Assembly: GCA_013297865.1 (NCBI GenBank)
Contig: JAAFIP010000015.1
Coordinates: forward strand, 31,359-95,358
Direction: 5' to 3'
Length of the DNA stretch: 64,000 nucleotides
DNA from: Polaromonas sp.
GTDB lineage: Bacteria; Pseudomonadota; Gammaproteobacteria; Burkholderiales; Burkholderiaceae_C
Within the stretch, counting starts at the first letter, position 1. Each line of letters opens with the position of its first letter. Shown here in pieces: positions 41,450-57,377 of this stretch. A program made the translations under genes and the position numbers. Under the pieces are notes generated by a model. The model had not been told where the DNA came from and did not search any database. It saw nothing but the letters and a program-made list of their open reading frames with translations.

Positions 41450-43189
41450 TTACTTCAGAGCACTCCAGGCGGCATAGTCTTTGGGGTAGGCCTCTTTGTA
41501 GCGGGCCAGGTGGGCCATGGCCACATCGTCAAAGTGCAGCATCGTGGCCGACTCGATCAGCGCCTCAATCACCCGCGGCTCGGGCGAATAGTGCACCAGG
41601 TCCAGCGACAGCCGCAGCACATGCACCGCGGTTTGCGGTGTGAGTGGCGTGGTCACCAGCTCGGCAAACTGCGCCTGCCGCCTGAACAGCCAGCTGCGCT
41701 GCGCCGCGGCCATCACATCGCCCTCGTAGCGCGCGCTGCGTTGCTCCACGGGCAGGTAGATCTGGCTCACGCGGTGGTAGTCAAAGGCAGCATAGAGCGT
41801 AAAACACAATAACCCAATTGCTATGCTTTTAATAGCTGCTCCCGCGATATTCCATTGGCCTGCAGCCCTATTTTGTATATAAAAGCCCTTCCCAGAAGGC
41901 GCTGCAGCCGCTGCTGGGGCCAGCAGCAGCCCCAGGCACAGCCCCAGCGTCATCAAAAACGGCCCATACCACAGCGGATACTCCACCATGCTGTGCAGCG
42001 CCAGCAGCGCCAGCACACCCCAGGCCAGCTGGCGTGCAGCGTCTGCCTCGCGCCAGGGCGCAGCGCGCCACACCCACCAGGCCAGCGTGCCACAAAACAG
42101 CAGCGCAAAGGGCAGGCCCAGCTCGACGGCCAGGTGCAGCGGCAGGTTGTGGGCATTGTCCAGCAGGTCCATAAAACGCACGCCCTCCTGCGTGCCAAAG
42201 CTGGTGGCGTAGTGTGCATAGGCCAGCTCCCGCCAGCCCCAGCCCAGCCAGGGCTTTTGCGCAATCAGCTCGATCACATTGCTGTACAGCGCCACCCGCC
42301 CGCTGCCCGTGCTGTCCTGCATGCGCGAGAGCACACCACTGGAGGTGTTACCCACCACATCAGCAAACCAAGGCATCAGCGCCACCGCCACCGCATAGAT
42401 CAGCATGCTGCCCCAGGCCAGACGCTTCACCTGCGCCGACAGGCTGCCGCGCCACAGCCACACCAGCGCCCCGATCAGCAGCCACTGCAACGCCCCCGTG
42501 CGCGAGCTAGACAGCGCATTGCCCAGCGCCAGTGCGCCAGCTGCCAGCCACGGCCAGTAGCCCATCCCTTCGCGCCCCGCAGAGAGCTGCCGCAAATACA
42601 AAAGTGCCAACAGCCCCATGCCACACAGCGTAGCAAACTGATTACGCTGGCGCAGATTCGCATAGGCCGTGCCATCACCCGACACGCTGATCCACGGCGC
42701 AAACCAGTGCTCCACGCGCAAGTATTGGCACAGTGCCATCGCCACACTCACCAGCGCCACTACCAGCCAGGTGCGGGCCAGCCCAGGTAGCGCAACAGCC
42801 TGCCCCATGCTCCACAACTCTACGTCCCGTTGCGTCACATCCTGCCGCATCGGCCCCGCTGCGCCAGCTTGCTCTTGCCCTATACAAAGCCCCACAAACA
42901 GCATCAGCCCCACACTAGCCCAAGCCAGCAAAGTCGCCAGATTCTCCGCCCCCGCCCCCACCGAGCGCCCATGCAGCACAAAAAACAGTGCACACCCTAG
43001 CCCCAACACCATCGCCCCCCGCGGCTGCGCCACTGTACGCTGCCCCACAAGCGCCAGCCAGGCAGCACAGCCCACACACAGCAGCGACACCAACCAAGGC
43101 ACCATCGCCGCCGATGGTCCAGGCGCAAAAGGACTCAGCCAGGGCAGAGCCAGTACAGTAAAAAATAAAGAAGTGCGCAGCGAGGTCAT
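41450..43189 (-). CDS. PglL/PilO-type O-antigen ligase-like O-oligosaccharyltransferase (Wzy_C plus C-terminal Wzy_C_2-like domain)
   Basis: About 12 TM helices, a periplasmic-loop region 'SSRTGALQW', and a C-terminal soluble domain 'YHRVSQIY...LVHYSPEPRVIEALIESA'. It sits next to the pilin genes. Carries repeat copy 9. Confidence 0.8.
   Translation of the reverse strand: MTSLRTSLFFTVLALPWLSPFAPGPSAAMVPWLVSLLCVGCAAWLALVGQRTVAQPRGAMVLGLGCALFFVLHGRSVGAGAENLATLLAWASVGLMLFVGLCIGQEQAGAAGPMRQDVTQRDVELWSMGQAVALPGLARTWLVVALVSVAMALCQYLRVEHWFAPWISVSGDGTAYANLRQRNQFATLCGMGLLALLYLRQLSAGREGMGYWPWLAAGALALGNALSSSRTGALQWLLIGALVWLWRGSLSAQVKRLAWGSMLIYAVAVALMPWFADVVGNTSSGVLSRMQDSTGSGRVALYSNVIELIAQKPWLGWGWRELAYAHYATSFGTQEGVRFMDLLDNAHNLPLHLAVELGLPFALLFCGTLAWWVWRAAPWREADAARQLAWGVLALLALHSMVEYPLWYGPFLMTLGLCLGLLLAPAAAAAPSGKGFYIQNRAAGQWNIAGAAIKSIAIGLLCFTLYAAFDYHRVSQIYLPVEQRSARYEGDVMAAAQRSWLFRRQAQFAELVTTPLTPQTAVHVLRLSLDLVHYSPEPRVIEALIESATMLHFDDVAMAHLARYKEAYPKDYAAWSALK
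41820..41867 (-). repeat. dispersed repeat copy 9 (subfamily A, closest to consensus), inside the PglL-like gene
   Basis: 'GCTATGCTTTTAATAGCTGCTCCCGCGATATTCCATTGGCCTGCAGCC'. Read in the gene's sense it encodes 'AAGQWNIAGAAIKSIA'. Confidence 0.9.
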
Positions 43190-43264
43190 GTCCCAAGTCT
43201 AACCATGCCGGTCAATACATCGCTGCAAAACTTACGGCGGGCGACTAACACTCGCTAGGGGATG

Positions 43265-44053
43265 TTAGAAACCATCAATTGGGGCATAGGCCAAGGGCAA
43301 AGCGGTTTTAGCGTCAATAAAAGCAACCCAATCTGCAGTTTTAAAGCTTGTTACTGGGATATAGAGCAAACTGCTTTCTGCAACGCCACTATCGATAACT
43401 GTTTGATCAATCAAGCGAGAGGCCTCTGGGCGTTTGGCACGCAAATTTGCAATAGATTTTGCACGACTCAAAACTTGATTTCGACTTAACTCGTAACTTT
43501 GCCACCAGTCTGGTCGTACTGCTTCGTCTTGGCCCTGAAACGCTAGATCCAAACTTTTCGCCCTTTCAAGGGGATCTTTGGCACTACGTACCCCAATTAA
43601 TTTGGGCCCAAATATCGGTAACTTATGGAAGCCGCCTAGTTCAGGTTTAAGTTGCCCCTCTGGAATATCTGCTCTAGACACCACTCTTAAGCGGTCAACT
43701 TCATGGACTAGGTAAACAGGGCGCGCTAAATATACGGTATACAGACCATAAACCAAAGCGGCCATCTGAATAACTGCCACTATGCCCAGATCTCGAATAA
43801 GCTCACCGCGTGGTTTGGCAGGATTAAACAAAACAAATGTAAGCAACGGGCCACACACCACGTCCACCGAGATAATCAGTACAAACAACTCTCTGCCACC
43901 CGATAACTCACGGTAAGGGTAGGGATACCAAACGCCAAATACCAATACACCTGCAAAAAAAGCTACCAGCAAGCTGAGAAAGAGATGCCAAGCTGCAGCT
44001 TTTAAAGAATACTTAAGGCGCGTATTGAATATATTACTGACCAACAACTGCAT
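43265..44053 (-). CDS. TfpX/TfpZ (FimB)-family type IV pilin accessory protein
   Basis: 'VFGVWYPYPYRELSGG...ISVDVVCGPLLTFVLFNPAKPRGEL...ALVYGLYTVYLARP' matches my memory of this membrane protein family, which is encoded downstream of group III-V pilins. GC is low, about 42%. Confidence 0.75.
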   Translation of the reverse strand: MQLLVSNIFNTRLKYSLKAAAWHLFLSLLVAFFAGVLVFGVWYPYPYRELSGGRELFVLIISVDVVCGPLLTFVLFNPAKPRGELIRDLGIVAVIQMAALVYGLYTVYLARPVYLVHEVDRLRVVSRADIPEGQLKPELGGFHKLPIFGPKLIGVRSAKDPLERAKSLDLAFQGQDEAVRPDWWQSYELSRNQVLSRAKSIANLRAKRPEASRLIDQTVIDSGVAESSLLYIPVTSFKTADWVAFIDAKTALPLAYAPIDGF

Positions 44054-44101
44054 ACAAACTAAGACTGGTTTTCAAATTCATAATGTAGTTGTGAGTTTAC
44101 T

Positions 44102-44668
44102 TTAACGGCATTGTGCAGGCACGTACTTAGCTCGTACGGCAGTAGCACCTAATGCTGCAGGAATCACACCTGTACCAGCAAACTGAGCAGTAGCGGTTGC
44201 ATTTGTTTCAGAAACACATGCAAAGTCTATATCACCTGAAACTTGTGTTGCAGGTGTCAATGCAGTTAGCAGCGTCACAGCAGTTCCTGTTCCAGTGCGA
44301 ACGATCGGATGAATTTGAATCAGGCGCTCACCTGCTTTAATACCAACGCTAACGTCGTTGTACTGAATTGTCATGATACCGGTTGTAGTAGAACCTTGGA
44401 TGTTGTTAACGAACTTGCTGGTTGCACCAGTACCACCAGATTGGTTGTTAAAAGTTGTCATGGCTCCTGCCAAATCGGCAGCGGTAACCGCGCCGTAAGT
44501 AACTATGCCCTTCTTCAAAGGCTCAACCAAGCTCAAACCCTCAGTGATACGTGCGCGGATGGTGTAGTCTTGGTACGCGGGCAATGCAATAGCAGCCAAT
44601 ATACCAATAATCGCTACAACTATCATCAGTTCGATCAGGGTAAAGCCCTTTTGCAATAAACGTTTCAT
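44102..44668 (-). CDS. pilA: type IVa major pilin, paralog 2
   Basis: Class III signal '[35 protein letters not shown]' and a C-terminal Cys pair (disulfide loop). About 92% aa identity to paralog 1. Confidence 0.9.
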
Positions 44669-44688
44669 AATTAGCTCCAAGCAGTCAT

Positions 44689-44714
44689 TAAAAAAAAGAG
44701 CGCCTAAGCGCTCT
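44689..44714 (-). terminator. rho-independent terminator between the two pilin genes
   Basis: The minus strand reads AGAGCGC-TTAG-GCGCTCT followed by T8. It starts 26 nt after the paralog 1 stop. Confidence 0.8.
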
Positions 44715-44739
44715 TTTCAAGTAGAAACTATATTAGAGA

Positions 44740-45306
44740 TTAGCGGCATTGTGCAGGTACGTACTTGGCACGCACGGCAGTAGCGCCTAATGCTGCAGGG
44801 ATTACACCTGTACCAGCAAACTGAGCCGTAGCTGTAGCATTGGTTTCAGATACACATGCAAAGTCCACAGTACCCGATACTTGTGTTGCAGGTGTCAATG
44901 CAGTCTGCAAGGTCACAGCAGTACCTGTACCAGTGCGGACAATCGGATGAATTTGAATCAGGCGCTCAGCGGCTTTGATACCTACATTACCGTCGTTATA
45001 CTGAATCACCATAATACCGGTAGTAGTAGAACCTTGAATGTTGTTAACGAACTTGCTGGTTGCACCAGTACCACCAGATTGGTTGTTAAATGTTGTCATG
45101 GTTCCTGCCAAATCGGCAGCGGTAGAAGCGCCGTCCGTAGCTAAGGATTTCTTCAGAGGCTCAACCAAGCTCAAACCTTCAGTGATACGTGCACGGATGG
45201 TGTAGTCTTGATAAGCTGGCAGAGCAATAGCAGCCAAAATACCGATAATCGCCACAACGATCATCAATTCGATCAGGGTGAAACCCTTTTGCAGAGTACG
45301 CTTCAT
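44740..45306 (-). CDS. pilA: type IVa major pilin, paralog 1 (promoter-proximal)
   Basis: '[35 protein letters not shown]'; 188 aa; SD 'ctggaga'; sigma-54 promoter immediately upstream. Confidence 0.9.
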
Positions 45307-45344: not shown

Positions 45345-45361
45345 TTGCAAGTGGTGTGCCA
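45345..45361 (-). promoter_or_regulatory. sigma-54 (-24/-12) promoter of pilA paralog 1
   Basis: The minus strand reads TGGCAC-ACCAC-TTGCA, an exact match to the TGGCAC-N5-TTGCW consensus and spacing, 39 nt upstream of the ATG. Confidence 0.85.
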
Positions 45362-45554: not shown

Positions 45555-47987
45555 TTACTTCAGGCACACCGCTCGCACCTGTTTAAGGTCGGTCAGGCCC
45601 ATCAGAATCTTTTCCATGCCGTCCATCTTGAGGGTGCGCATGCCTTGGGCTACGGCCAGAGTGAATAGTTCGGCCACGCGGGCGCTCTCCTGGATGAGTT
45701 TTTTGATGGCGTCGTCGGCCACCAGCAGCTCGTGCAGGCCCACGCGACCTTTGTAGCCGGTGTGCTTACATTTGTCGCAGCCGCCCTGGCTGTTGACGCG
45801 GTAGAGCTTGAGGCTGCCGTCTTTGCCGTAGGCTTCGCTCCAGTGGTCCAGCAGGAGCTGCTGTTCGCCCCCGGGGTCGGCCTGCCAGGCAGCGGTGTGG
45901 CGCAGCTCGTCGGCATATTCGGTGATAAAGCTCTTGAGCTCGGTCGAAGTGGGCGTGTACTCTTCTTTGCAGTCGCACAGGCGCTTGGCCAGGCGTTGCG
46001 CCAGGATGCCCAGCAGCGCATCGGCAAAGTTGAACGGGTCCATGCCCATGTCCAGCAGCCGGGTGATGGACTCGGGCGCGCTGTTGGTGTGCAAGGTGCT
46101 GAACACCAGGTGGCCGGTGAGCGAGGCTTCCACACCCATGCTCACGGTTTCCTTGTCGCGGCTCTCGCCCACCATGATGATGTCGGGGTCGGCGCGCAGA
46201 AAGGCGCGCATGATCAGGGCAAAGTCAATACCGGCTTTTTTGTTGACCTGGACCTGACGCAGGCCCTTTTGGGTGATCTCCACCGGGTCTTCGGCCGTCC
46301 AGATCTTGGTGTCGGGCGTGTTGAGAAACTTGAGGATGCTATGCAATGTGGTGGTTTTGCCCGAACCGGTAGGGCCGCACACATAAAACAGGCCGTAGGG
46401 TTTGCTGACGGTTTTTTCCACACGCTCACGGTTGTGGGTGGTGAGGCCCAGTTTTTCCAGCGGGATAGGCTCGCCTGCGGCCAAAATGCGCATGACCACG
46501 TCTTCCACGCCGCCTGCGCTGGGGATGGTGGCCACGCGCAGCTCGATGTCCAGCGGGCCGTATTTTTTGAACTTGATCTTGCCGTCCTGCGGCTTGCGCC
46601 GCTCGGAGATGTCCAGGTCGCACATGATTTTCAGGCGAGTGACCATGGCCTGGCGAAAATGCGAAGGCACCTCGATATACGGTGCCAGCGTGCCGTCAAC
46701 GCGAAAGCGGATGCCGGTTTTGGCCTTGCCGGGCATGGGCTCGATGTGGATGTCCGAGGCCTTCTGGTGGTAGGCGTCCACAATGACCTTGTTGACAAAC
46801 TTTACCAGCTCGTTGTCGGCCGCGGCTGACTCGAGAGCCGAATCGTCAAAGCCAGAGTCGTCCAGCGGCGCGTTCATGTCGGCCAGTAGCTGGTCGATAG
46901 AGCCGCTGTCGTTGCCTGCGCCAAACAGCTGGCCCAGGGTTTCTTCAAACTCCGCATGGGTGGTGACGCGGTAGCTGACTTTGGACAGGCGCGGGAACAG
47001 CTGCTGCACCATGCGCGCGCCGCGCGTGGCCTCAGGGTCCAGGCACATCACCACCAGGCCTTCGGAGGTTTCTTCCAGCGGGATCCAGCCTTGCTGGTGG
47101 ATGAAGTCCACCTTCAGCGCAGCGTGCAGCATCTCCGAGCGGATGCGCCCGTTGCTAAATGGCTCATACGGCACACCAAAAAACTGCGCAAGCGACGGGC
47201 CGATCTGCGCGGGCTTGATGTGGTGGTCGGCCATCAGCATATGCTCCACCGACTGGCCCTGCTCGCGAGCCTTGCGCACACACTGCGCCAGCGCTTCGGC
47301 AGACAGCATCTCCTGGCTCACCAGCAAATCGTATTTGGTGGCTTTGCGCCGCTGGCTGTCTTCGGCGCGCTGCGCGCGCTGGCGGATGGCGGTGGCCAGG
47401 GTTTTGCACAGCTGGGTGGCGCCTTCAATCTCCAGCATACCAAATGGCGCATTGCTTTTGTTGTTGATCACCTGCAGCACACCATGCAGCTGCTGGCCGT
47501 CCACAATCGGCACCACCAGCATCTGCTTGGTGCGGTAGCCCGAGCGCTTGTCCACCTCTTTGAGAAAACTCAGCTGGGGATGGATGCGCTTGAGGCTCTC
47601 GTCGTCATACACATCGGCAATATTGACCATATCGCGCGACATGGCGGCATAGCCCGCAATGCTCTGCACGCCAATGGGCAGCTTGAGGTCTTTGGCCACC
47701 TGCAGGCCGGTTTTGACCTTGGAGATGATCGAGCTTTTGTCTTCGCTTACAGCGTACAGCGTGAGCCGGTCTGCATTGAGCAGCTTGCAGATGTCCTGGC
47801 TGGACTCCAGCATCAGCTGGTCAATGTTCTCGGTGTCGTGGATGCGGGTGGTGACCTGCTGTAGCTGGCGGTAAAACAGTACCTCAAAGGTGACGCCGCG
47901 TTTTTCAGGGGGCAGCAGCTGGGAGTTGAAAAACGCCTGTTCAGCGCTGGCATGCGCATGGCTCGACGGCGAAAACCCGGAGCTCAT
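45555..47987 (-). CDS. GAF domain-fused PilB/GspE-family (T2SSE) hexameric ATPase
   Basis: - 810 aa in total.
- N-terminal GAF-like region (about aa 40-200).
- T2SSE_N-like region (about aa 220-360).
- ATPase core: Walker A 'GPTGSGKTT', Asp box 'TAEDPVEI', Walker B 'DIIMVGESRD', His box 'GHLVFSTLHTN'.
- Zinc motif 'CDC...CDKC'. Confidence 0.9.
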   Translation of the reverse strand: MSSGFSPSSHAHASAEQAFFNSQLLPPEKRGVTFEVLFYRQLQQVTTRIHDTENIDQLMLESSQDICKLLNADRLTLYAVSEDKSSIISKVKTGLQVAKDLKLPIGVQSIAGYAAMSRDMVNIADVYDDESLKRIHPQLSFLKEVDKRSGYRTKQMLVVPIVDGQQLHGVLQVINNKSNAPFGMLEIEGATQLCKTLATAIRQRAQRAEDSQRRKATKYDLLVSQEMLSAEALAQCVRKAREQGQSVEHMLMADHHIKPAQIGPSLAQFFGVPYEPFSNGRIRSEMLHAALKVDFIHQQGWIPLEETSEGLVVMCLDPEATRGARMVQQLFPRLSKVSYRVTTHAEFEETLGQLFGAGNDSGSIDQLLADMNAPLDDSGFDDSALESAAADNELVKFVNKVIVDAYHQKASDIHIEPMPGKAKTGIRFRVDGTLAPYIEVPSHFRQAMVTRLKIMCDLDISERRKPQDGKIKFKKYGPLDIELRVATIPSAGGVEDVVMRILAAGEPIPLEKLGLTTHNRERVEKTVSKPYGLFYVCGPTGSGKTTTLHSILKFLNTPDTKIWTAEDPVEITQKGLRQVQVNKKAGIDFALIMRAFLRADPDIIMVGESRDKETVSMGVEASLTGHLVFSTLHTNSAPESITRLLDMGMDPFNFADALLGILAQRLAKRLCDCKEEYTPTSTELKSFITEYADELRHTAAWQADPGGEQQLLLDHWSEAYGKDGSLKLYRVNSQGGCDKCKHTGYKGRVGLHELLVADDAIKKLIQESARVAELFTLAVAQGMRTLKMDGMEKILMGLTDLKQVRAVCLK

Positions 47988-48775
47988 AGGTCAAATACTT
48001 GCCCCGCCCGCAGCCAGCGGATGTCATGGCTCACATGGGGGCCAGAGGGATGGGTCTGGTCAAAGCGTTGCACCTCTTCCATGATCAGGTCGGTCTCAGC
48101 TGGCTTGGTATGGGTGATGTAAATCGGAAAGTGCTTGTCCTGGGCGATCTGGTCCAGCTCGTCTGCCAGTGCGGTGGGCGAGAGGTGCAGGCTGCGTTTG
48201 GCCAGCTCCTGCTCACGGTTGCTGAAAGCGGTTTCTATCACTAGCATCGCCACGTTCATGGAGTTCAGACGCTGCCAGAAGGCGGCGTTGCGCTCGGTAT
48301 CGCCAGTAAACACCCAGCTGCTTCGGCCTGCATGCACCGCGTAGCCCACCGCAGGCACGGTGTGCACTGCTGGCATCACCTCGACGGTTTTGCCTGCGAT
48401 TTGCAGGATTTGGCCGGTATGGATCGGGTGAAAACTCAAAAACGGCGCTTCGGCCGACGGAATTTGGCTGAAGTCGGGCCAGATGGCGTTATTGAAAATA
48501 TGCTGGCGCAGGGCGGCAATCGTCTCGGGCAGGGCATGCACGCGCAAAGGCGCGCTGCGCTGGGCTGCGACCGAGTCGATCATCAGCGGCAACGAGGCGA
48601 TATGGTCCAGATGCGAATGGGTCAGCAGCACATCGTTGATCTGGCACATCTCATCCAGACGGAGGTCGCCCACGCCCGTGCCTGCGTCCACCAGCAGGTC
48701 GGCATCAATCAGGAAGGAGGTGGTACGGCAGTCCTTGGCAATCGCGCCAGAGCATCCTAAAACCCGTACTTTCAT
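47984..48775 (-). CDS. class II 3',5'-cyclic-nucleotide phosphodiesterase (MBL fold)
   Basis: 'MKVRVLGCSG' and 'LLTHSHLDHIASLPL' match the start of the class II PDE signature H-x-H-L-D-H-[LIVM]-x-[GS]. The stop overlaps the ATPase start (ATGA). The start is at 48775, or possibly 48802. Confidence 0.8.
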   Translation of the reverse strand: MKVRVLGCSGAIAKDCRTTSFLIDADLLVDAGTGVGDLRLDEMCQINDVLLTHSHLDHIASLPLMIDSVAAQRSAPLRVHALPETIAALRQHIFNNAIWPDFSQIPSAEAPFLSFHPIHTGQILQIAGKTVEVMPAVHTVPAVGYAVHAGRSSWVFTGDTERNAAFWQRLNSMNVAMLVIETAFSNREQELAKRSLHLSPTALADELDQIAQDKHFPIYITHTKPAETDLIMEEVQRFDQTHPSGPHVSHDIRWLRAGQVFDL

Positions 48776-48812
48776 TGTGCAAAATTCCCCAAAGACATAC
48801 ATCGCCTATGCA

Positions 48813-51062
48813 TTATTTAGTATCAAAATTGGTTGCGCCGTCCCACGCGGGATCAATAGGCAACATACGCATAGAGGCTACACGCTCTGAGTACAGTTGG
48901 TAAAGGTATTTTTTGGCATTTACGCGCTGCAAATTAAGTATTTGTACATCGCATTGCTCCCAGTCCTGGTTTCTGTAGGCCTTAAGTAAGCCATTCCAGA
49001 TTTTCAGCTCGTCGGCCTGATCTTTGCCCAGATGGTCAGCGCTGGCCACGGGCATGAAGATGGAAACGGCCTGTTCCTTGCCCTTGACGCGCACTTTGTC
49101 CAGCTCCTGCCAGGCAAAATCAGGCGCCAGCCTGCGGGTGGACTCACTCACCACAATCTCCACGCCATAGTTTTTGGACAGTCCTTCCAGCCGCGAGCCC
49201 AGGTTGACGGCGTCGCCAATGACGGTATAGCTTTTGCGGATCGACGAGCCCATGTCGCCTACGCACATATTGCCCGTGTTCAGGCCAATGCCGATGCCGA
49301 TGGCGGGCAAGCCCTTGGCCTCGTGCTCGGCATTGAGGGTGCGCACGGCCTGCGCCATCTCGATGGCGGTTTTTACCGCCAGCGAGGCGTGCTGTGGCGA
49401 GTCCACTGGCGCGCCCCAAAACGCCATCACGCAGTCGCCCATGTATTTGTCGATGGTGCCCCGATTGGCGCGGATCAGGTCGGTCAGGCGGCTGAAGACA
49501 GTGTTCAGCAGGGCCTGCAGCTGGGTGGGCTCCATGTTCTCAGACAGCTTGGTAAAGCCGCGCATGTCACAGAACATGACGGTCAGCTCCTTGCTGGCGG
49601 CCTTCATGTTGTAACTGTCGGGGTCTTTGACCATTTCATCGACCAGCTCGGGCGGCACATAGGTGCCAAACAGGTTGGCGATCTGGCGCTTGGATTTGCT
49701 CTCGACAAAATAGCCGTAACTCATGTTGAGCGCAAAGGCCGTCAGCGACATGATCAACGCCGCAGCCAGGGGCAACACCAGACCATAGCCCAGGTACATC
49801 CAGAAATTCAGGCCCACTACTGCGCCGATTACCAGCAAGCTCAGCGCGACAGCCTTGGGCGCAGACAGCATCGGCAGCGCAATGGCCAGAATCAGGCCGG
49901 CGAGCACCAGCACCACCACCTCAAAACCAATGGCGTAATCAGGCCGCACAGGCACACGGCCATCAAGCAGGCCAGAGATCATGTTGGCATGCACCTCTAC
50001 CCCCGGGTAGGTCTCGCCCACGGGGGTGACGCGCAGGTCCAGCAGGCCGGGGGCTGTGGTGCCCAGCAGCACGATCCGGTCTTTGAGCGCACCCGCAGGC
50101 ACCCGCTGCATCACCACATCCGAGGCAGAGTAGTATTTGAAGGAGCCGCCAGTCGTGTTGCCCGGGCCCCGAAACGGGATCAAAGCGGAGACTTTGTCAT
50201 CCACCGGAATGGCCAGGCTCTTGCCGTCCTGGCGCAGCAAAATGCTCTCCAGTCCCTGGTAATTGCGTGCCAGAAAGCGCTCTTGTGGAAAGCCCGGCTC
50301 GATTTTGGGCAAACCGGTGAGCATGCGGAAAATGCCCAGCGACAGAGATTCGTAATACTGCCCCTTGTGCTCCGCCACCAGCGGGATGGATCGCACCACA
50401 CCGTCGAGGTCAGTAATGGAGTTGAAAAACCCGGCCATGGGCGCTGCTTTGGCCAGGGACTCAATATTGGAGCCAAAGCCCGACCAACTGGTGAATTTGA
50501 TGGGCTTGCCTTGCAATGCGTCACGCTGCATCACGGGGGCAGGCAGCGCGCCGCTGGTGCGGCCATCGCGGTCACTGGTGAAGTAGTAGCCCATCACTAC
50601 GGCGCGTTTATCTAGAGACTTGGCAAATGCGGCGTCGTAGTCCAGGCTGTTTTCAATCTGTCCCAGACGCTCGGCAAACCCGGCCTGGTCCTTGAGCTCG
50701 TTGCTGGCCAGCTGGCGCAGGCGCTTGAGACCCGAGCTCTCGTCGGCTTCCGCAAACACCACGTCAAAACCCAAAATGGCGATTTTCTGGCGCTCGAACA
50801 GCTCATCCACCAGGGTGGCCATTTTGTTGCGGCCCCAGGGCCAGCGGCCGACTTCGGCCAGGCTTTTCTCGTCAATGTCGATGATCGCAATGCGCTCATC
50901 CAGGGTCTTGGGCATGGTCGCGCTCAGGCGCGAGTCGTAGATGATGTCATCCAGACGCTGGAAGACATTGATGGGCAACATGCCGCTGGCGTGCAGCAAG
51001 GCAATGACTAGGGGGATAAGTGTGACGGCGATGCGGCGCCAATGTTTCAGCAGCACCTGCAT
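48813..51062 (-). CDS. CHASE2 sensor-linked class III adenylate/guanylate cyclase
   Basis: N-terminal CHASE2 region ('IAIIDIDEKSLAEVGRWPWGR'), then 3-4 TM helices, then the cyclase domain 'VMFCDMRGFT...DKYMGDCVMAFWGAP...GDAVNLGSRLE' with both metal Asp residues and the Asn/Arg pair present. Confidence 0.9.
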   Translation of the reverse strand: MQVLLKHWRRIAVTLIPLVIALLHASGMLPINVFQRLDDIIYDSRLSATMPKTLDERIAIIDIDEKSLAEVGRWPWGRNKMATLVDELFERQKIAILGFDVVFAEADESSGLKRLRQLASNELKDQAGFAERLGQIENSLDYDAAFAKSLDKRAVVMGYYFTSDRDGRTSGALPAPVMQRDALQGKPIKFTSWSGFGSNIESLAKAAPMAGFFNSITDLDGVVRSIPLVAEHKGQYYESLSLGIFRMLTGLPKIEPGFPQERFLARNYQGLESILLRQDGKSLAIPVDDKVSALIPFRGPGNTTGGSFKYYSASDVVMQRVPAGALKDRIVLLGTTAPGLLDLRVTPVGETYPGVEVHANMISGLLDGRVPVRPDYAIGFEVVVLVLAGLILAIALPMLSAPKAVALSLLVIGAVVGLNFWMYLGYGLVLPLAAALIMSLTAFALNMSYGYFVESKSKRQIANLFGTYVPPELVDEMVKDPDSYNMKAASKELTVMFCDMRGFTKLSENMEPTQLQALLNTVFSRLTDLIRANRGTIDKYMGDCVMAFWGAPVDSPQHASLAVKTAIEMAQAVRTLNAEHEAKGLPAIGIGIGLNTGNMCVGDMGSSIRKSYTVIGDAVNLGSRLEGLSKNYGVEIVVSESTRRLAPDFAWQELDKVRVKGKEQAVSIFMPVASADHLGKDQADELKIWNGLLKAYRNQDWEQCDVQILNLQRVNAKKYLYQLYSERVASMRMLPIDPAWDGATNFDTK

Positions 51063-51156: not shown

Positions 51157-51798
51157 TCAGCCTTGGACAAACTGCATCTGAGTGCCAGCAAGCTCGAGAA
51201 CATCCATGTCTTTAAGTGTGACAGGCTCCGCGCCAATAGGCGCACCGTTGAGCGTGGGCTTGTTGGAGCCTTCCACATGGGCCACCACAAAGCCATGGGG
51301 GCGCTTGGTAATGGCAGCAACGGCCACACCGGGCTTGCCAATCGTAGTGACTACCTTGACCAGAGGCACTTCGCGGCCGGCAGCGGCACCTGAGAGCACC
51401 TTGATGGCCGCATTGACCGAAGGCGCAGCAGCAGCACTGGCCGCAGGCGGCATGGCGACACCGGCAGAACCGGGTTTGACGACCATCGTCTGCTCAAAAC
51501 TCGCATTGGCCGCTTCGTTGACAAATTTGATCTTATATTTGCCGATTTCAACAGTATCGTTGTTTGCCAACAACTGTTTTTTGGCAGCTTTGCCGTTGAC
51601 ATAGGTGCCATTGGTGCTGTTGAGGTCTTCCAGGTACACCTCATTGCCCGTCATCTGCATGACGGCGTGCTCGCCACTGACGGCCAGATTGTCGATGACA
51701 ATGTCGTTGTAAGGACGCCGTCCCAGGGTGGTACGGTCCTTCGTTAGCTGGACTTCCTTGATGACGACACCGTCGATCGATACGATCATTTTCGGCAT
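51157..51798 (-). CDS. FHA domain protein (N-terminal FHA plus second beta-rich domain)
   Basis: 'TTLGRRPYNDIVIDNLAVSGEHAVM...LNSTNGTYVNG' carries the FHA signature residues G-R, S-x-x-H and N-G; 213 aa. Confidence 0.85.
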   Translation of the reverse strand: MPKMIVSIDGVVIKEVQLTKDRTTLGRRPYNDIVIDNLAVSGEHAVMQMTGNEVYLEDLNSTNGTYVNGKAAKKQLLANNDTVEIGKYKIKFVNEAANASFEQTMVVKPGSAGVAMPPAASAAAAPSVNAAIKVLSGAAAGREVPLVKVVTTIGKPGVAVAAITKRPHGFVVAHVEGSNKPTLNGAPIGAEPVTLKDMDVLELAGTQMQFVQG

Positions 51799-51832: not shown

Positions 51833-52618
51833 CTACTTTCTCAGTAAGCGCGACATCAAGCCACGCTTGTTTGAGCCTTCTTTGGCCTGCATCAGCAGCA
51901 CCGTAATATTATCCCTGCCACCAGCCTCATTGGCCGCTGCAATCAAGGTATTGCACTTTTGCTCCAGCGTCTCATCGTTACGCAAGATCTGTGCAATGCC
52001 GTCGTCGTCCACCATGTCAGACAGGCCATCAGAACACATCAAGTACAGATCGCCAACCTCCACGCGGTGCTCATTGACTTCCAGCAACACCGTGTCTTCC
52101 ACGCCCAGTGCGCGGGTGACCAGGTTTTTGTTCAGCGATGTAGCAGCCTGCTCAGGAGTGATTAAGCCTGCATCAAGCTGTTCCTGCAAGAGCGAATGGT
52201 CCCTGGTGATCTGGCTGAACTCCTCGCCACGCAGGCGATAGCAGCGCGAATCGCCAATATGGCCGAGCATCAGGCGTGCTTCGTGGCACACCCCCACCAC
52301 CAGCGTGGTGCCCATGCCGGCGTACTGCGGATTGGAGTTGGCAGCATTGAAGATCGAACGATTGGCGTTGTCCACGCAGATTTCCAGCGCGCGGCGCACT
52401 TCGCGGGCATTGGCGGTTTTGCCCACCTGCGACAGCCAGCGGCTGAGTTCGGAGCGGATAAACGCGGTGGCCATGCCACTGGCGACTTCGCCAGCGTTAT
52501 AGCCGCCCATGCCATCGGCTAGGACGGCCAGCTGGGTGGGTGCATCAAAAGTGACCGAATCCTCGTTGTTGTCTCGCGCGAGTCCGGGGTCGGTATGGGT
52601 ACAAAATTGGTAAATCAT
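51833..52618 (-). CDS. PP2C-family Ser/Thr protein phosphatase
   Basis: 'RDNNEDS', 'LADGMGG', 'CSDGLSD' and 'GGRDNITVLL' are PPM motifs; 261 aa. Confidence 0.9.
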   Translation of the reverse strand: MIYQFCTHTDPGLARDNNEDSVTFDAPTQLAVLADGMGGYNAGEVASGMATAFIRSELSRWLSQVGKTANAREVRRALEICVDNANRSIFNAANSNPQYAGMGTTLVVGVCHEARLMLGHIGDSRCYRLRGEEFSQITRDHSLLQEQLDAGLITPEQAATSLNKNLVTRALGVEDTVLLEVNEHRVEVGDLYLMCSDGLSDMVDDDGIAQILRNDETLEQKCNTLIAAANEAGGRDNITVLLMQAKEGSNKRGLMSRLLRK

Positions 52619-52647: not shown

Positions 52648-55386
52648 TTAGCTATGAGTCCCCGAATTGGGAGGGGGCGCGACTATGGTTTTCTCGAACT
52701 TTGAAGGCTCAGGCGTGAATTTTTGCGTTGCAGCAAAACCATCTGGACTGGTTTTGGACACTGCTGGCGCGCTCATGATACGGGTGGGCTCTTCTGCGTC
52801 TGCGCTGGCGACAACAGGACGCGGGCTGGCTACTGTCTGGGGCTGGGTATCGCCCACACCCATCTCGGCGATGGCCAGGCGCAGATCGCTGGCCAGTTGC
52901 TCGCCATCCTGGTAGCGCGTCTCAGGGCGTTTGCTCAGTGCGCGCATCACCACATGGGCTACTCGCTCGCTCAGGTCGGCTCGGATGGCGCGTACATCGG
53001 GGGCTTCTTCGTTGGCGATTTTGTACATCAGCTCAGCCATTGAGTCACCACGGAACGGCAGCACGCCAGCAAGCATCTGGAAAAGCATCACGCCCAGGGA
53101 ATACAGGTCTGAGCGCCCGTCGACTTTTTTGCCCGCAATCTGCTCGGGTGACATGAAGCTGGGGGTGCCCAGCACCAGACCGGTTTTGGTTTTGCTGGAG
53201 TCGGTAATGCGTGCAATGCCAAAGTCGGTCACCTTGACCGTGTCGCTGTCCAGCTCATACATGATGTTGGCAGGCTTGATGTCACGGTGCACCACATTCT
53301 GGCGGTGTGCATAAGCCAGCGCCTGCGCCACGCGCTCCACAATCGACAGCACCTTGGCCACCGGCAGCAAACTGCCTTGTTTGCAGAAATCCACCAGGTC
53401 TTTGCCTTTGAGAAACTCCATGGCGATGTAGGCCAGATCATGCTCTTCGCCCGCATCAAAAATCGTCACGATGTTCTGGTGCTGCAGGCGCCCTGCGGTT
53501 TCTGCCTCGCGGAAGAAGCGCTCACGCGCATCAATCAGCTCATCCCCATCGAACTCCTGCGACAAGGCCATGGTCTTGATAGCCACAACGCGGCCAATCT
53601 TGGGGTCCTTGCCCAGATAGACCACCCCCATCGCGCCCTTGCCCAGTTCTTTTTCGACCTGGTAACGGCCCAGCATGGGTTTCTCCACGCCGCCGCCGTC
53701 CAGTAGCATGGTGCCGCCAGGGTGCGCGCCTGTGCCACCGAGGATGACGGTTTCCGAGAGGTTTTTGGCACGGCTGAGTTTGGCATCCAGCCCTTTGTAG
53801 CTGCGGTCCAGCCCGGCCATGTGCTCATACACCGCCTGGGCCTTGTTGAACTGGCGCTTGCGCTCAAAATCCAGCGCCAGATTGCCCAGGTTACCCATCA
53901 GGGCGTCACTCACCGGCACGCGGCGAAAACGGTCAAATGCCATGTCCAGCTGGCCTTGGCCCTGCAACGCCAGGCCCATCATGCGGTTGGTCTCGGCAGA
54001 CTCCTCATCGCTTTTAACTTTGCCTGCTTCGGTGAACAGGAAACGTTTGGTGGTCAGCGCCAGGTGGCCGATCACCAGCAGCATGGCGGGAAACACCAGC
54101 TTGAGCCACTTGCTGTTTTGCGAGAGCAGCACATATTCAGCGATCAAAAACAGCGCGAACACTGCGCCCGTCATGACCGCGCCCTGGCCTGCAGACAGGC
54201 GCGGCAGCAGCACAATCAGATAGGCCATGGTCAACAGCACGGCCAGACCGGAGGTGATGTAAGCCCATGAGGGCGTGCTGACGAAGTGCTCAGACAGAAT
54301 GCCCGAGGTGACATGGGCCGTGAGCTCTACCGGGGTCATGGAGCGGCCCAGCGGCGTGGGAAACTCCACACCCAAACCTGCTGCGGTAGGGCCGAGCAGC
54401 ACGATTTTGTTGGCGTATTTGCTGGCTTGTACTTTGCCAGACAGCACATCAAAGGCAGAGTCGGTGGCAAATGCGGTCTTGCCATCGCGGTCGGCGTAGA
54501 AGAAGGGGCGCATCAAGGCCGCGCCGCCTTCGTCAGTACCAATGCGCAGCTTGCCCAGCTGAATTTCAAACGGATTGTCGTTCACACGGATGTCAGCCGG
54601 GCCCAGATTGAGACTGCGGGCTGCCGCCAAAAGCGCTATCGAGGGAACAAGCTGGCCGTAGTAGTTGGTAAGCAAAGGCTCGCTGCGTATCGCGCCGTCA
54701 ATATCTGCCACCTTGCTGGCATGCCCGATGCCAATGGCCTTGCTGCCCAAAATCTCCAGCGGCTCCAAAATACCGGCCGCCTCTACGCCCAGCAGTGTGG
54801 CAGGCGCGGCAACCAGGCTTTTGGTGGTGCCCGGGCTCAGGGGTTTGTCTGGCTTGCCACGGGCTTCACCCGGCGTGAAAGACGCCGCCAGAATGACCTT
54901 GTTGGATGCCGCAATCGACTGCGCCAGTTTGGCGTCACTGTTGAGTGCTTCTTCACCCTCGGTGGCGATCTTGTTGACCGCCTCCAGCGTGGAGTTGCTG
55001 GCCGAGGGGTCGATGGCCAGCGCCTCGCGGATCTTGCGCAGATAGGGCAAGCCGCGCTCCATCTGCGGCTCAAAATAGAACACGGTGTTGACGATGGACT
55101 TGGGTGCGCCGGAGTTGATTTTGTCGATCAGCTGGGCCTGCACATCGCGCGACCAGGGCCAGCGACCGATATTGGCAATGCTTTGGTCATCAATGGCGAT
55201 GATGGCGATCTGGTCAGAAGGCTTTTTGTTGGCCGCGCTGAGGGATACGTCGTAGAAGCGGTTTTCAAACGTATCTACAAAGTTGGTACTTTTGTAGAGC
55301 AGCAGTACGCCAAGCACCACCAGGACGCCCACAAACCAGTCGGAGCGCCAGAATTGGCTACGTTTTGAAGAAGATCCTGTCCCCAC
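52648..55386 (-). CDS. CHASE2 sensor-linked Hanks-type Ser/Thr protein kinase
   Basis: - N-terminal CHASE2 region ('IAIIAIDDQSIANIGRWPWSR').
- TM cluster followed by a helical linker.
- Kinase domain with 'GKGAMGVVY', 'VAIKTM', 'HRDIKPANI', 'DFGIA' and 'GTPSFMSPE'.
- Pro/Ser-rich tail.
- 912 aa in total. Confidence 0.9.
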   Translation of the reverse strand: MGTGSSSKRSQFWRSDWFVGVLVVLGVLLLYKSTNFVDTFENRFYDVSLSAANKKPSDQIAIIAIDDQSIANIGRWPWSRDVQAQLIDKINSGAPKSIVNTVFYFEPQMERGLPYLRKIREALAIDPSASNSTLEAVNKIATEGEEALNSDAKLAQSIAASNKVILAASFTPGEARGKPDKPLSPGTTKSLVAAPATLLGVEAAGILEPLEILGSKAIGIGHASKVADIDGAIRSEPLLTNYYGQLVPSIALLAAARSLNLGPADIRVNDNPFEIQLGKLRIGTDEGGAALMRPFFYADRDGKTAFATDSAFDVLSGKVQASKYANKIVLLGPTAAGLGVEFPTPLGRSMTPVELTAHVTSGILSEHFVSTPSWAYITSGLAVLLTMAYLIVLLPRLSAGQGAVMTGAVFALFLIAEYVLLSQNSKWLKLVFPAMLLVIGHLALTTKRFLFTEAGKVKSDEESAETNRMMGLALQGQGQLDMAFDRFRRVPVSDALMGNLGNLALDFERKRQFNKAQAVYEHMAGLDRSYKGLDAKLSRAKNLSETVILGGTGAHPGGTMLLDGGGVEKPMLGRYQVEKELGKGAMGVVYLGKDPKIGRVVAIKTMALSQEFDGDELIDARERFFREAETAGRLQHQNIVTIFDAGEEHDLAYIAMEFLKGKDLVDFCKQGSLLPVAKVLSIVERVAQALAYAHRQNVVHRDIKPANIMYELDSDTVKVTDFGIARITDSSKTKTGLVLGTPSFMSPEQIAGKKVDGRSDLYSLGVMLFQMLAGVLPFRGDSMAELMYKIANEEAPDVRAIRADLSERVAHVVMRALSKRPETRYQDGEQLASDLRLAIAEMGVGDTQPQTVASPRPVVASADAEEPTRIMSAPAVSKTSPDGFAATQKFTPEPSKFEKTIVAPPPNSGTHS

Positions 55387-55615: not shown

Positions 55616-56311
55616 TTAAGCGGCGGCTTGGCTGCGCTTTTGCATCCACAGGCCCAGGCTGACGACAATGGCAGCGCCCACCACGCCAGCGAACAGGATG
55701 GTCTGCTCACCCATCTTGCCGAACCAGCCCACAAAAGCCGGGTCGGTCAGCAGCATTTCGCCGGCCAGGAAGCCCAGCAGCGCAGCACCCAAGGTGATGA
55801 TGATGGGGAAACGTTCCATGATTTTCATCAGCAGGGTGGAGCCAAAAATGATCAGGGGAATGCTGACCAGCAGACCCAGCACGAGCAAGGCCGTGCTGCC
55901 CTTGGCCGCAGCAGCGACGGCGAGCACGTTGTCCAGGCTCATCACCAGGTCAGCAATCAGGATGGTGCGGATCGCAGCGCCCAGACCGTTGATTTCCTTG
56001 CCGTGGCTGTCATCGTCACCGCCACCGCTGAGCAAATCTACGCCAATATAGACCAGCAGCACTGCACCGATGATCTTCAAATAGGGCAGTGCGAGCAGTT
56101 GAACAGCGACCACTGTCAAAATAATACGCATCACAATGGCGGCAGCGCTGCCCCAGAAGATGGCTTTATTTTGGTGCTCGGGCTTGAGGGACCGGGCAGC
56201 CATCGCAATGACTACGGCGTTGTCGCCCGATAAAACGATGTTGGCCAGCATGATGGAGCCCAAAGCGCTCCACATCGCAGCAGATGAAATATCGAGTCCG
56301 AAAAACACCAT
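55616..56311 (-). CDS. TerC/YjbE-family integral membrane protein
   Basis: 'NIVLSGDNAVVIAMAAR' and 'IADLVMSLDNVLAVAAAA' are duplicated TerC motifs. The ATG at 56311 has the RBS 'aagga'. Confidence 0.85.
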   Translation of the reverse strand: MVFFGLDISSAAMWSALGSIMLANIVLSGDNAVVIAMAARSLKPEHQNKAIFWGSAAAIVMRIILTVVAVQLLALPYLKIIGAVLLVYIGVDLLSGGGDDDSHGKEINGLGAAIRTILIADLVMSLDNVLAVAAAAKGSTALLVLGLLVSIPLIIFGSTLLMKIMERFPIIITLGAALLGFLAGEMLLTDPAFVGWFGKMGEQTILFAGVVGAAIVVSLGLWMQKRSQAAA

Positions 56312-56483
56312 GTCTTGTATCCTTGTTGTAGTTGCACCGAAAAAAAGCGCTTCAGGCAGGGCCAGCACTTTTAGTCACCCGCTGGAGCAACAACGAGTGT
56401 AAACGGCGATACACGCCATGGTGTGCGTAAAACTGCTTACCGTTGGGATGGCGTCAGCCATCCCTGCTGGCACCAGCTCTGGC

Positions 56484-57377
56484 CTAGAGCATCGCCTTCA
56501 GCAGCTTGGCCATCTCGGACGGGTTGCGTGTGACTTTAAAGCCGCACTCTTCCATCACCGCCAGCTTGGCGTCTGCCGTGTCAGCGCCGCCGCTGATCAG
56601 CGCGCCGGCATGGCCCATGCGCTTGCCTGCGGGGGCGGTAACGCCCGCGATAAAGCCGACGATGGGCTTTTTCATGTTGGCTTTGCACCAGCGGGCAGCG
56701 TCTGCCTCGTCCGGGCCGCCGATCTCGCCAATCATGATGACAGCGTCGGTGTCCGGGTCGTCGTTGAAGGCCTTCATCACGTCGATGTGCTTCAGACCGT
56801 TGATCGGGTCGCCACCGATGCCCACTGCGCTGGACTGGCCCAGGCCGATTTCGGTCAGCTGCGCCACGGCTTCGTAGGTGAGCGTGCCTGAGCGCGAGAC
56901 CACGCCAATGCGGCCCTTGCGGTGGATGTGGCCGGGCATGATGCCAATCTTGATTTCATCTGGTGTGATCAGGCCCGGGCAGTTGGGGCCCAGCAGCAAG
57001 GTGCGCTTGCCGCCAGCGGCTTCTTTGGCCTTCATGCGGTTGCGCACTTCCAGCATGTCACGCACGGGGATGCCCTCGGTGATGCAAATCGCCAGGTCCA
57101 GGTCGGCTTCGACAGCTTCCCAGATGGCCGCGGCAGCGCCTGCGGGCGGCACATAGATCACGCTGACCGTAGCGCCGGTGGTGGCAGCAGCTTCTTTGAC
57201 CGATGCGTAGATCGGGATGTTGAAAATCGACTCGCCCGCCTTCTTGGGGTTTACGCCCGCGACGAAGCAGTTTTTGCCGTTGGCGTATTCCTGGCACTTC
57301 TCGGTGTGAAACTGGCCGGTCTTGCCGGTGATGCCTTGGGTGATGACTTTGGTGTTTTTGTTGATGTAAATACTCAT
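56484..57377 (-). CDS. sucD: succinyl-CoA synthetase alpha subunit
   Basis: 'MSIYINKNTKVITQGITGKTGQFH', 'SRSGTLTYE' and 'MGHAGA'; 297 aa. Confidence 0.95.
   Translation of the reverse strand: MSIYINKNTKVITQGITGKTGQFHTEKCQEYANGKNCFVAGVNPKKAGESIFNIPIYASVKEAAATTGATVSVIYVPPAGAAAAIWEAVEADLDLAICITEGIPVRDMLEVRNRMKAKEAAGGKRTLLLGPNCPGLITPDEIKIGIMPGHIHRKGRIGVVSRSGTLTYEAVAQLTEIGLGQSSAVGIGGDPINGLKHIDVMKAFNDDPDTDAVIMIGEIGGPDEADAARWCKANMKKPIVGFIAGVTAPAGKRMGHAGALISGGADTADAKLAVMEECGFKVTRNPSEMAKLLKAML

Follow-up and report, generated by a model that had tools for sequence, protein, structure and literature searches.

A GAF-MshEN-T2SSE assembly ATPase encoded with a cyclase and a phosphodiesterase in Polaromonas: a candidate cyclic AMP-gated type IV pilus motor

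To our knowledge, every characterised nucleotide input to motors of the PilB/MshE/PilF type is cyclic di-GMP (c-di-GMP) acting on the MshEN domain, and we know of control of type IV pili by cyclic AMP (cAMP) only via transcription factors. A locus within a 64-kb stretch of a Polaromonas sp. contig (JAAFIP010000015.1; the whole stretch is referred to here as the window) raises the question of which second messenger is read by an assembly ATPase in which a GAF domain has been fused in front of the MshEN domain. The answer that we consider slightly likelier to be right than wrong is that this protein represents a type IV pilus extension motor (PilB-class), the regulatory input of which has been switched from c-di-GMP to cAMP. 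The gene and its predicted domains are located in the window as follows.

45555..47987, minus strand: GAF-MshEN-T2SSE assembly ATPase with an ATG start, 810 amino acids (open reading frame and Pfam domains)
47373..47867, minus strand: GAF domain, residues ~41-205, assigned to the subclass that binds cyclic nucleoside monophosphates (cNMPs) (Pfam, phmmer against the PDB, Foldseek, pocket conservation)
46908..47342, minus strand: domain with a predicted MshEN/GSPII fold and without the c-di-GMP motif, residues ~216-360 (Pfam, AlphaFold2 and Foldseek, motif comparison)
45555..46820, minus strand: PilB/GspE-type ATPase core, comprising the N2 and C-terminal domains and the tetracysteine site (Pfam T2SSE, PDB matches, motifs)

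A preliminary description of this DNA, made from the letters alone, had proposed an 810-residue PilB/GspE-type ATPase at 45555-47987, without giving its strand, and had read a GAF fold at residues ~40-200, followed by a T2SSE_N-like region and a complete ATPase core. The open reading frame and the Pfam matches agree with this account. GAF (PF01590) was detected at residues 57-201 with 44.1 bits against a gathering cut-off of 22.4, MshEN (PF05157) at residues 270-357 with 31.0 bits (cut-off 23.1) and T2SSE (PF00437) at residues 390-804 with 374 bits. The motifs quoted in that description were all found at an exact residue, including the GAF string (residue 157), and the core harbours a complete set consisting of Walker A (GPTGSGKTT, residue 538), Asp box (EDPVE, 566), Walker B (DIIMVGESRD, 602), His box (TGHLVFSTLHTN, 624) and a tetracysteine site, the halves of which are CDC at 671 and CDKC at 737. 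The spacer between these halves (residues ~672-736; 45771-45975, minus strand) exceeds that of Thermus PilF and of the Pfam T2SSE profile by ~30-45 residues, a feature that is also seen in closer single-GAF relatives and less so in multi-GAF forms. No second T2SSE or GAF sequence was found elsewhere within the window, and an exact-sequence look-up of the 810-residue protein matched no record.

In a search of the PDB, the ATPase core was shown to be closest to Thermus PilF (E 3e-101), Myxococcus xanthus PilB (4e-95) and GspE (~1e-93), with Geobacter PilB also among the closest relatives and with PilF, PilB and GspE matches ranging from 1e-92 to 1e-101. A PilT-type retraction ATPase was rejected on the basis of the same search, as PilT was matched with an E-value of 5e-32 versus ~1e-100 for PilF/PilB. 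Since the scores against the NCBIfam equivalog models for PilB (TIGR02538, 468.5 bits) and GspE (TIGR02533, 435.1 bits) fall below the respective cut-offs of 675.65 and 630.25, the protein is, by profile comparison, a member of a distinct subfamily of PilB/GspE-clade assembly ATPases.

The GAF fold, for which hidden Markov model searches and structure prediction had been put forward as checks, is supported by Pfam, AlphaFold2 and Foldseek alike. The AlphaFold2 model of residues 1-390, based on 42 homologues, has a mean predicted local distance difference test (pLDDT) score of 78.8, with values of ~85-93 in the GAF core and ~85-94 across the GAF and MshEN cores. When the GAF model was compared with the PDB using Foldseek, the top 50 matches were all GAF structures (E down to 7e-12), the foremost being the GAF of the HD-GYP protein PmGH, PDE6C, PDE5A, Lcd1-GAF with cAMP, PtsP-GAF, CyaB2, PDE2A and PDE10A. 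At the sequence level, phmmer identified the cAMP-bound tandem GAF of Anabaena CyaB2 (1YKD, GAF-A and GAF-B) as the closest solved relative (E 1.2e-24), followed by PmGH (4MCW, 3.8e-10), PDE10A GAF-B (4.5e-7), PDE2A GAF-B (7e-6) and then PDE6 and PDE5; Lcd1 was also among the matches and PtsP-GAF was reached at an E-value of 0.096. A bilin-type GAF, as found in phytochromes and cyanobacteriochromes, was rejected, with phmmer E-values of 8e-4 or weaker. Judged by these relationships, the GAF domain of the Polaromonas ATPase is of the cNMP-binding subclass.

In CyaB2 GAF-B, cAMP is contacted by R291, T293, I308, T309, D356 and N359 (PMC4411481). In the phmmer alignment (offset 57), these positions correspond to R74, T76, V91, K92, D146 and S149, respectively, of the Polaromonas GAF, with the Arg, Thr and Asp being identical. 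Pocket conservation was counted over 81 species-level orthologues, in which R74, T76, K92, T93, A111, G112, V145, D146, S149, T153, N175 and F182 are each invariant (81/81), while V91 varies between V, I, L and F only; identity to the query across this set is 77% for the GAF and 66% for the MshEN domain. In a more divergent comparison set, consisting of 26 cluster representatives at 26-59% identity, D146 is present in 26/26, and T76, T153, Q172, N175 and F182 are nearly universal. An Arg at the position of R74 is common to the cAMP binders CyaB2 (GAF-A and GAF-B) and PDE10A (GAF-B) and is absent in the cGMP binder PDE2A (GAF-B). The string N-K-x4-F-x3-E, described previously as being close to the NKFDE signature, was indeed located, at residue 176: N175, K177 and F182 are kept, with Glu (E186) in place of Asp and Ile (I187) in place of Glu. 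Because most of the 26 divergent representatives possess the canonical D-E pair, and with it the full NKFDE, this ATPase family appears to descend from bona fide cNMP-type GAFs, with the present clade having drifted to E-I/V at the D-E positions.

The GAFs of CyaB1/CyaB2 and of mammalian PDE2/5/6/10 thus provide the best sequence and structure matches, with the N, K and F of NKFDE being shared with all of these and the contact residues R, T and D with CyaB2. A long C-terminal helix pointing towards the effector domain is a further common feature; in the AlphaFold2 model of the Polaromonas ATPase it spans residues 184-214 and runs straight into the MshEN-fold domain. In contrast to CyaB1/2 and the phosphodiesterases, the Polaromonas clade has a single GAF rather than a tandem pair and E/I in place of the D/E of NKFDE, and its output domain is a secretion ATPase (AAA+-like) and not the catalytic domain of a cyclase or phosphodiesterase.

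The MshEN segment, when compared with the PDB using phmmer, returned only a marginal match to PilF (E 0.15), and its fold was therefore established by means of AlphaFold2 and Foldseek. A separate model of residues 205-390, with a core pLDDT of >90, matched PilF-GSPIIB (c-di-GMP-bound), VcMshEN (5HTL), XpsE-N and Xanthomonas (Xac) PilB-N with target-normalised TM-scores of ~0.62-0.71 (PDB entries 8PDK, 9GLG, 5HTL, 2D28 and 7LKM), indicating that residues ~216-360 are modelled as an MshEN/GSPII fold. The c-di-GMP motif of such domains, RLGxxL(L/V/I)xxG(L/V/I/F)(L/V/I)xxxxLxxxLxxQ, comprises 24 residues and occurs in tandem with a five-residue linker, a relaxed search variant having been defined as well (Wang et al. 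2016). Neither the strict nor the relaxed motif matched anywhere in the 810-residue protein. Two half-motif segments, T217-A240 and S246-F269, are present in register around the linker REQGQ, each agreeing at 6 of 11 positions; both retain the hydrophobic positions and lack R1, G3, G10 and Q24, and these residues are missing from both half-motifs across the divergent family too. R9 and Q32 of VcMshE have been described as pivotal for c-di-GMP binding (PMC12943098). Binding of c-di-GMP by the MshEN domain of the Polaromonas ATPase is, on this comparison, unlikely. As the MshEN domain is without this motif, the GAF seems to stand in for c-di-GMP sensing, and it is more likely to have replaced c-di-GMP than to have been added to it. 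The preliminary description had regarded the GAF as a different, possibly additional, input relative to a c-di-GMP-binding MshEN; a different input is what the evidence favours, and an additional one is the less likely reading, with the motif absent and 6/11 positions matched per half.

The strongest support for cAMP is provided by a cyclase gene and a phosphodiesterase gene directly upstream, which had been overlooked in the preliminary description. The neighbouring features, in the order of transcription, are as follows.

52648..55386, minus strand: CHASE2-sensor Ser/Thr protein kinase (Pfam CHASE2 and Pkinase; transmembrane topology like that of the cyclase)
51833..52618, minus strand: PP2C-type Ser/Thr phosphatase, a conserved neighbour (Pfam PP2C_2 and PP2C)
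51157..51798, minus strand: FHA-domain protein, adjacent in nearly all relatives (Pfam FHA, 78.7 bits)
48813..51062, minus strand: CHASE2-sensor class III adenylyl cyclase, as predicted (Pfam CHASE2 and Guanylate_cyc, the latter 94.9 bits; alignment to 3R5G)
47984..48802, minus strand: putative class-II-like cyclic-nucleotide phosphodiesterase of the metallo-β-lactamase (MBL) fold (Pfam PDEase_II, 51.4 bits, cut-off 23.7, partial profile match)
45346..45361, minus strand: perfect sigma-54-type -24/-12 element, TGGCAC-N5-TTGCA, ~40 nt ahead of the start codon of the first pilin gene (read from the sequence)
44740..45306, minus strand: type IVa prepilin gene 1, 188 amino acids (Pfam N_methyl and Pilin; NCBIfam prepilin models)
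44102..44680, minus strand: type IVa prepilin gene 2, 192 amino acids (Pfam; NCBIfam)
43265..44053, minus strand: TfpX/TfpZ-family pilin accessory protein (NCBIfam NF041437, 215 bits, cut-off 200)
41450..43189, minus strand: PglL/Wzy_C-type O-oligosaccharyltransferase, likely involved in pilin glycosylation (Pfam PglL_A, Wzy_C and Wzy_C_2)

The whole cluster is encoded on the minus strand, with gaps of 29 bp between the kinase and PP2C genes, 34 bp between PP2C and FHA, 94 bp between FHA and the cyclase, and 10 bp between the cyclase and the phosphodiesterase, the stop codon of which overlaps the start of the ATPase gene by 4 bp (ATGA). A 248-bp gap separates the ATPase gene from the first pilin gene, and as the sigma-54-type element sits in this gap, the pilins are probably transcribed apart from the cyclase-phosphodiesterase-ATPase unit. 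A strict sigma-54 match ahead of the pilin gene was observed in only 8/59 relatives and is thus not a general feature. The earlier remark that no pilC or pilD follows the ATPase gene holds, as two pilins, TfpZ and the PglL-type ligase are located downstream; pilC, pilD and pilMNOPQ were all absent from the window.

Alignment of the cyclase to Pseudomonas aeruginosa CyaB (3R5G) revealed the same substrate-specifying pair, Lys (in GTIDKYMGD) and Thr (in SYTVIGDAVN), together with the metal-binding Asp pair and the Asn and Arg transition-state residues. The guanylyl cyclase Cya2 has Glu and Gly at the two substrate-pair positions. Following class III nomenclature, we take the Lys/Thr pair to be that of a class IIIb, ATP-specifying enzyme. 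The closest solved relative of the phosphodiesterase is yeast PDE1 (4OJV, E 4.8e-9), with which the motifs THxHLDHI and HxFNxxIWPD are shared, the Polaromonas copies THSHLDHI and HIFNNAIWPD aligning to it. Orthologues of the phosphodiesterase also match Apyc1 (PF23023), a family of cNMP phosphodiesterases, and the score of 32.4 bits against the equivalog NF041851 ('cyclic nucleotide-degrading phosphodiesterase') does not reach the cut-off of 400; the protein is accordingly described here as a related MBL-fold enzyme and a putative class-II-like cNMP phosphodiesterase. The cyclase and the Ser/Thr kinase share a sensor layout, consisting of one N-terminal transmembrane segment, CHASE2 and three transmembrane segments, and in view of this the outputs of the two proteins may read related extracytoplasmic cues.

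The distribution of this arrangement was assessed by a scan of GTDB species representatives, for which an alignment of four closer sequences served as the query. The number of species-level genomes with a relative was at least 591, with Polaromonas, Variovorax, Rhodoferax, Ramlibacter, Acidovorax and Gallionella among the genera represented. The best 80 of these relatives, i.e. the returned loci, were all from Comamonadaceae, because the four closer sequences had been used for the scan; the closest is a Polaromonas metagenome-assembled genome (MAG) at 81%. The fused open reading frame is intact, at ~817-839 amino acids, in 72/72 loci readable through to the stop codon, by which an annotation artefact arising from gene fusion was rejected. 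Cyclase and phosphodiesterase genes are adjacent in 62/67 eligible loci, and the kinase, PP2C and FHA genes occur together in 54/58; 36/59 relatives have a prepilin gene at a distance of no more than 1.5 kb. The most constant neighbours are PP2C and FHA, which are kept where the cyclase, or the cyclase and the phosphodiesterase, are missing. Relatives at ~50% identity, such as those of a Gallionella MAG and others, retain the cluster.

Short public entries named 'GAF domain-containing protein' stem from frameshifted or truncated assemblies. Orthologues split by frameshifts (L001, 10001-12436; L002, 10001-12371; L003, 10001-12411) conceal the fused architecture in protein databases, where the pieces are also labelled 'methionine-R-sulfoxide reductase with GAF domain' or 'ATPase, T2SS/T4P/T4SS family, partial'; the orthologue of Ramlibacter montanisoli, for example, is split into 365 and 454 amino acids.

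The cAMP-type GAF of the motor, together with a cyclase and a phosphodiesterase in the same transcription unit, suggests that pilus assembly may be turned on or off by cAMP directly. In the mechanism proposed here, the membrane-bound CHASE2 cyclase, encoded two genes upstream, would produce cAMP upon an extracytoplasmic cue, and the co-transcribed class-II-like phosphodiesterase would remove it, keeping the signal local and transient. The N-terminal GAF of the ATPase would bind cAMP, and, by analogy with GAF-regulated phosphodiesterases and CyaB1/2, the ligand may close the GAF pocket and shift the C-terminal helix (184-214) into the MshEN-fold domain; this relay from GAF to ATPase is put forward as a proposal. 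The N-terminal domains could then change their hold on the ATPase hexamer or its docking to the pilus platform, through which pilin polymerisation would be gated. The upstream CHASE2-kinase, PP2C and FHA proteins probably supply a second, phospho-threonine-dependent input. A wider proposal, to which we give somewhat less than even credence, is that, in a large group of Betaproteobacteria from the environment, direct allosteric control of the extension motor has passed from c-di-GMP to cAMP, with one operon combining a CHASE2 cyclase, a phosphodiesterase and a GAF-gated PilB with a threonine-phosphorylation checkpoint like that of type VI secretion systems (T6SS).

Several points weigh against cAMP as the input. 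In the GAF pocket, N359 and I308 of CyaB2 are represented by Ser (S149) and Val (V91), and the NKFDE motif is imperfect. We know of no established ligand for the GAF of PmGH, which is the second-best relative in the PDB. Isolated CyaB2 GAF-B also binds cGMP, with an affinity that is only 10-fold lower (PMC4411481), so that a choice between cAMP and cGMP cannot be fixed from sequence. As regards gene linkage, five Comamonadaceae loci are without the cyclase and phosphodiesterase and have PP2C and FHA directly upstream instead (L033, L044, L046, L052 and L077, from Curvibacter, Hylemonella and Rhodoferax MAGs), and the GAF pocket is unchanged in all five, which implies that the link with the cyclase is not obligatory. 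The idea of co-evolution, i.e. that the pocket would be degraded where the cyclase and phosphodiesterase are gone, was not borne out and gave no extra support. Two loci at ~50% identity (the P0119 locus and L090) lack the cyclase and kinase and keep PP2C, FHA and the phosphodiesterase, and family members at ~29% identity are either solitary genes or tandem paralogues with several GAFs, in neither case next to a cyclase gene. The synteny sample represents largely one betaproteobacterial radiation and is phylogenetically non-independent. Furthermore, the binding of cAMP, the direction of its effect (taken here to be activation) and the connection with the kinase module are steps that we infer.

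The latitude in ligand choice would suit an unlikely alternative, in which the GAF gates the ATPase by binding another small molecule, such as cGMP or a different cyclic mononucleotide, or else, as in PtsP-type GAFs, a metabolite (2-oxoglutarate or glutamine, for instance). GAF ligands are diverse (introduction of PMC4411481), and PtsP-GAF (3TRC) is a good structural match, with a target-normalised TM-score of 0.83 in Foldseek, accompanied by a weak NCBIfam PtsP match of 27.9 bits; the imperfect NKFDE, the modest preference of CyaB2 GAF-B and the similarity of the phosphodiesterase orthologues to the Apyc1 family, which degrades several cNMPs, are equally in keeping with this alternative. However, cNMP GAFs are far nearer in sequence than PtsP (E 1e-24 versus 0.096), all 81 orthologues carry the Arg and Thr that contact adenine in CyaB2, and the substrate pair of the adjacent cyclase is Lys/Thr, as in P. 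aeruginosa CyaB, and not Glu/Gly, as in Cya2, all of which favour cAMP as the ligand.

GAF domains commonly dimerise, and it is conceivable, if distinctly improbable, that the present domain is ligand-free and acts as a dimerisation or scaffold module, or as a dock for FHA, kinase or phosphatase, with regulation proceeding via phosphorylation. The constancy of PP2C and FHA as neighbours, even where the cyclase or the cyclase and phosphodiesterase are missing, is compatible with such a role, as are the N-terminal 30 residues of the ATPase, which are Ser-rich and predicted to be disordered. Invariance (81/81) of the positions that form the cNMP pockets of CyaB2 and PDE2A, also in loci without an adjacent cyclase, would be unexpected for a scaffold; in addition, the gene for the putative cNMP phosphodiesterase is translationally coupled to that for the ATPase, and sister clades place further cNMP receptors in the cluster. 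Least probable, and by our estimate very improbable, is the dual input proposed in the preliminary description, according to which MshEN still binds c-di-GMP, with the GAF providing a further signal. In favour of dual input are an intact MshEN fold similar to those of c-di-GMP-bound PilF-GSPIIB and VcMshEN, a conserved hydrophobic register, half-motifs that are still joined by five residues, and the placement of the architecture among MshEN-containing proteins (Wang et al. 2016). Nevertheless, both half-motifs are devoid of the R, G and Q residues, R9 and Q32 having been described as pivotal in VcMshE (PMC12943098), even the relaxed motif of Wang et al. 2016 fails, and the folds of known non-binders (XpsE-N and Xanthomonas PilB-N) match about equally well.

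Compared with the c-di-GMP-regulated motors Vibrio cholerae MshE, M. xanthus PilB and Thermus thermophilus PilF, the Polaromonas ATPase has in common the ATPase core, the MshEN/GSPII fold directly ahead of it and the logic by which an N-terminal domain of the motor itself senses a nucleotide second messenger, the latter being predicted here. It differs from these motors in lacking the c-di-GMP motif, in the extra cNMP-type GAF fused in front, in NCBIfam scores that do not reach the equivalog cut-offs for PilB and GspE, and in a gene that shares its operon with a cyclase and a phosphodiesterase rather than with pilC and pilD.

In P. aeruginosa (Pil-Chp/CyaB/Vfr) and Synechocystis (Cya1/Sycrp1), cAMP controls type IV pili through transcription factors. 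There too, cAMP from a class III cyclase governs the pili, and the catalytic domain of the Polaromonas cyclase resembles that of P. aeruginosa CyaB; the receptor is a CRP-family transcription factor in those organisms, whereas in Polaromonas it is predicted to be the assembly ATPase, which would amount to post-translational control. In the P. aeruginosa H1-T6SS, PpkA, PppA and Fha1 make up a pathway of threonine phosphorylation. As in Polaromonas, genes for a membrane-bound Ser/Thr kinase whose sensor is extracytoplasmic, for a PP2C phosphatase and for an FHA protein lie beside a possible target machine; in Polaromonas, in contrast to the H1-T6SS, this machine would be a type IV pilus, and the sensor is CHASE2.

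The architecture itself is not new, since GAF - MshEN - T2SSE is already listed for Geobacter lovleyi Glov_1971, for gamma- and delta-proteobacteria only and without function, ligand or reference (Wang et al. 2016, Supplementary Table 4). Glov_1971 has its domain order in common with the Polaromonas ATPase; that table does not cover the betaproteobacterial clade, its cyclase/phosphodiesterase operon or the missing c-di-GMP motif. Full-text literature searches found no characterisation of a GAF-MshEN-T2SSE protein, the table being the sole place where one was mentioned, or of direct cAMP control of a PilB-type ATPase, and a Ramlibacter genome paper mentions three PilB paralogues only. The Polaromonas protein is therefore an uncharacterised variant with a specific, testable mechanism. 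If this mechanism is correct, a motor reading cAMP directly, with its own cyclase and phosphodiesterase, would constitute a second, mechanistically distinct gate on pilus extension and a local, post-translational signal-to-pilus route that bypasses CRP/Vfr-type transcription. It would also give the CHASE2 sensor a function and exemplify a compact domain swap by which a machine is rewired between second messengers, in a family that is common and for which the hypothesis can be tested directly.

Beyond the closer relatives, an exhaustive representative search with the GAF-MshEN segment as the query yielded 194 clusters, defined at 50% identity, with E <=1e-30. In a Pfam scan of 10 cluster representatives, seven were GAF(1-3)-MshEN-T2SSE or GAF-T2SSE and three had other architectures. 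Akin modules were observed in three proteins, i.e. a 1003-residue protein with four MshEN-like repeats and no ATPase match (P0122), a HEAT-MshEN-TIR protein of 1106 amino acids (P0184) and an 854-residue protein combining Mrr_cat with four GAFs (P0126). In a metagenomic organism (L087/L088, 4113-13378), three side-by-side paralogues of 970, 954 and 1125 amino acids carry two or three GAFs ahead of MshEN-T2SSE, with no cyclase or pilin gene adjacent.

The sister clade at ~50% identity often adds a gene for a CAP-type cNMP_binding-rhodanese protein and/or a GAF-HD-GYP (HD_5) protein to the cluster (L002, 8824-9909 and 12389-14011; L084, 8879-9973; L089, 12388-14064; L090, 8742-9824). The GAF of the sister-clade GAF-HD-GYP protein is 28% identical to that of the ATPase (E 6e-12). 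As these genes join the cluster, cross-talk from cAMP to c-di-GMP is possible there.

The region 41450-45306 (minus strand), with its tandem prepilins, TfpX/TfpZ protein and PglL/Wzy_C ligase, has the appearance of a pilin glycosylation island. On its other side, the cluster adjoins TerC and sucC/sucD (55616-57377, minus strand) in the window, and the same holds for the flanks of L001, L002, L003 and L084, in organisms as distant as Gallionella, which indicates that this chromosomal position is ancient and has been passed on vertically, and that the cluster is not a mobile island.

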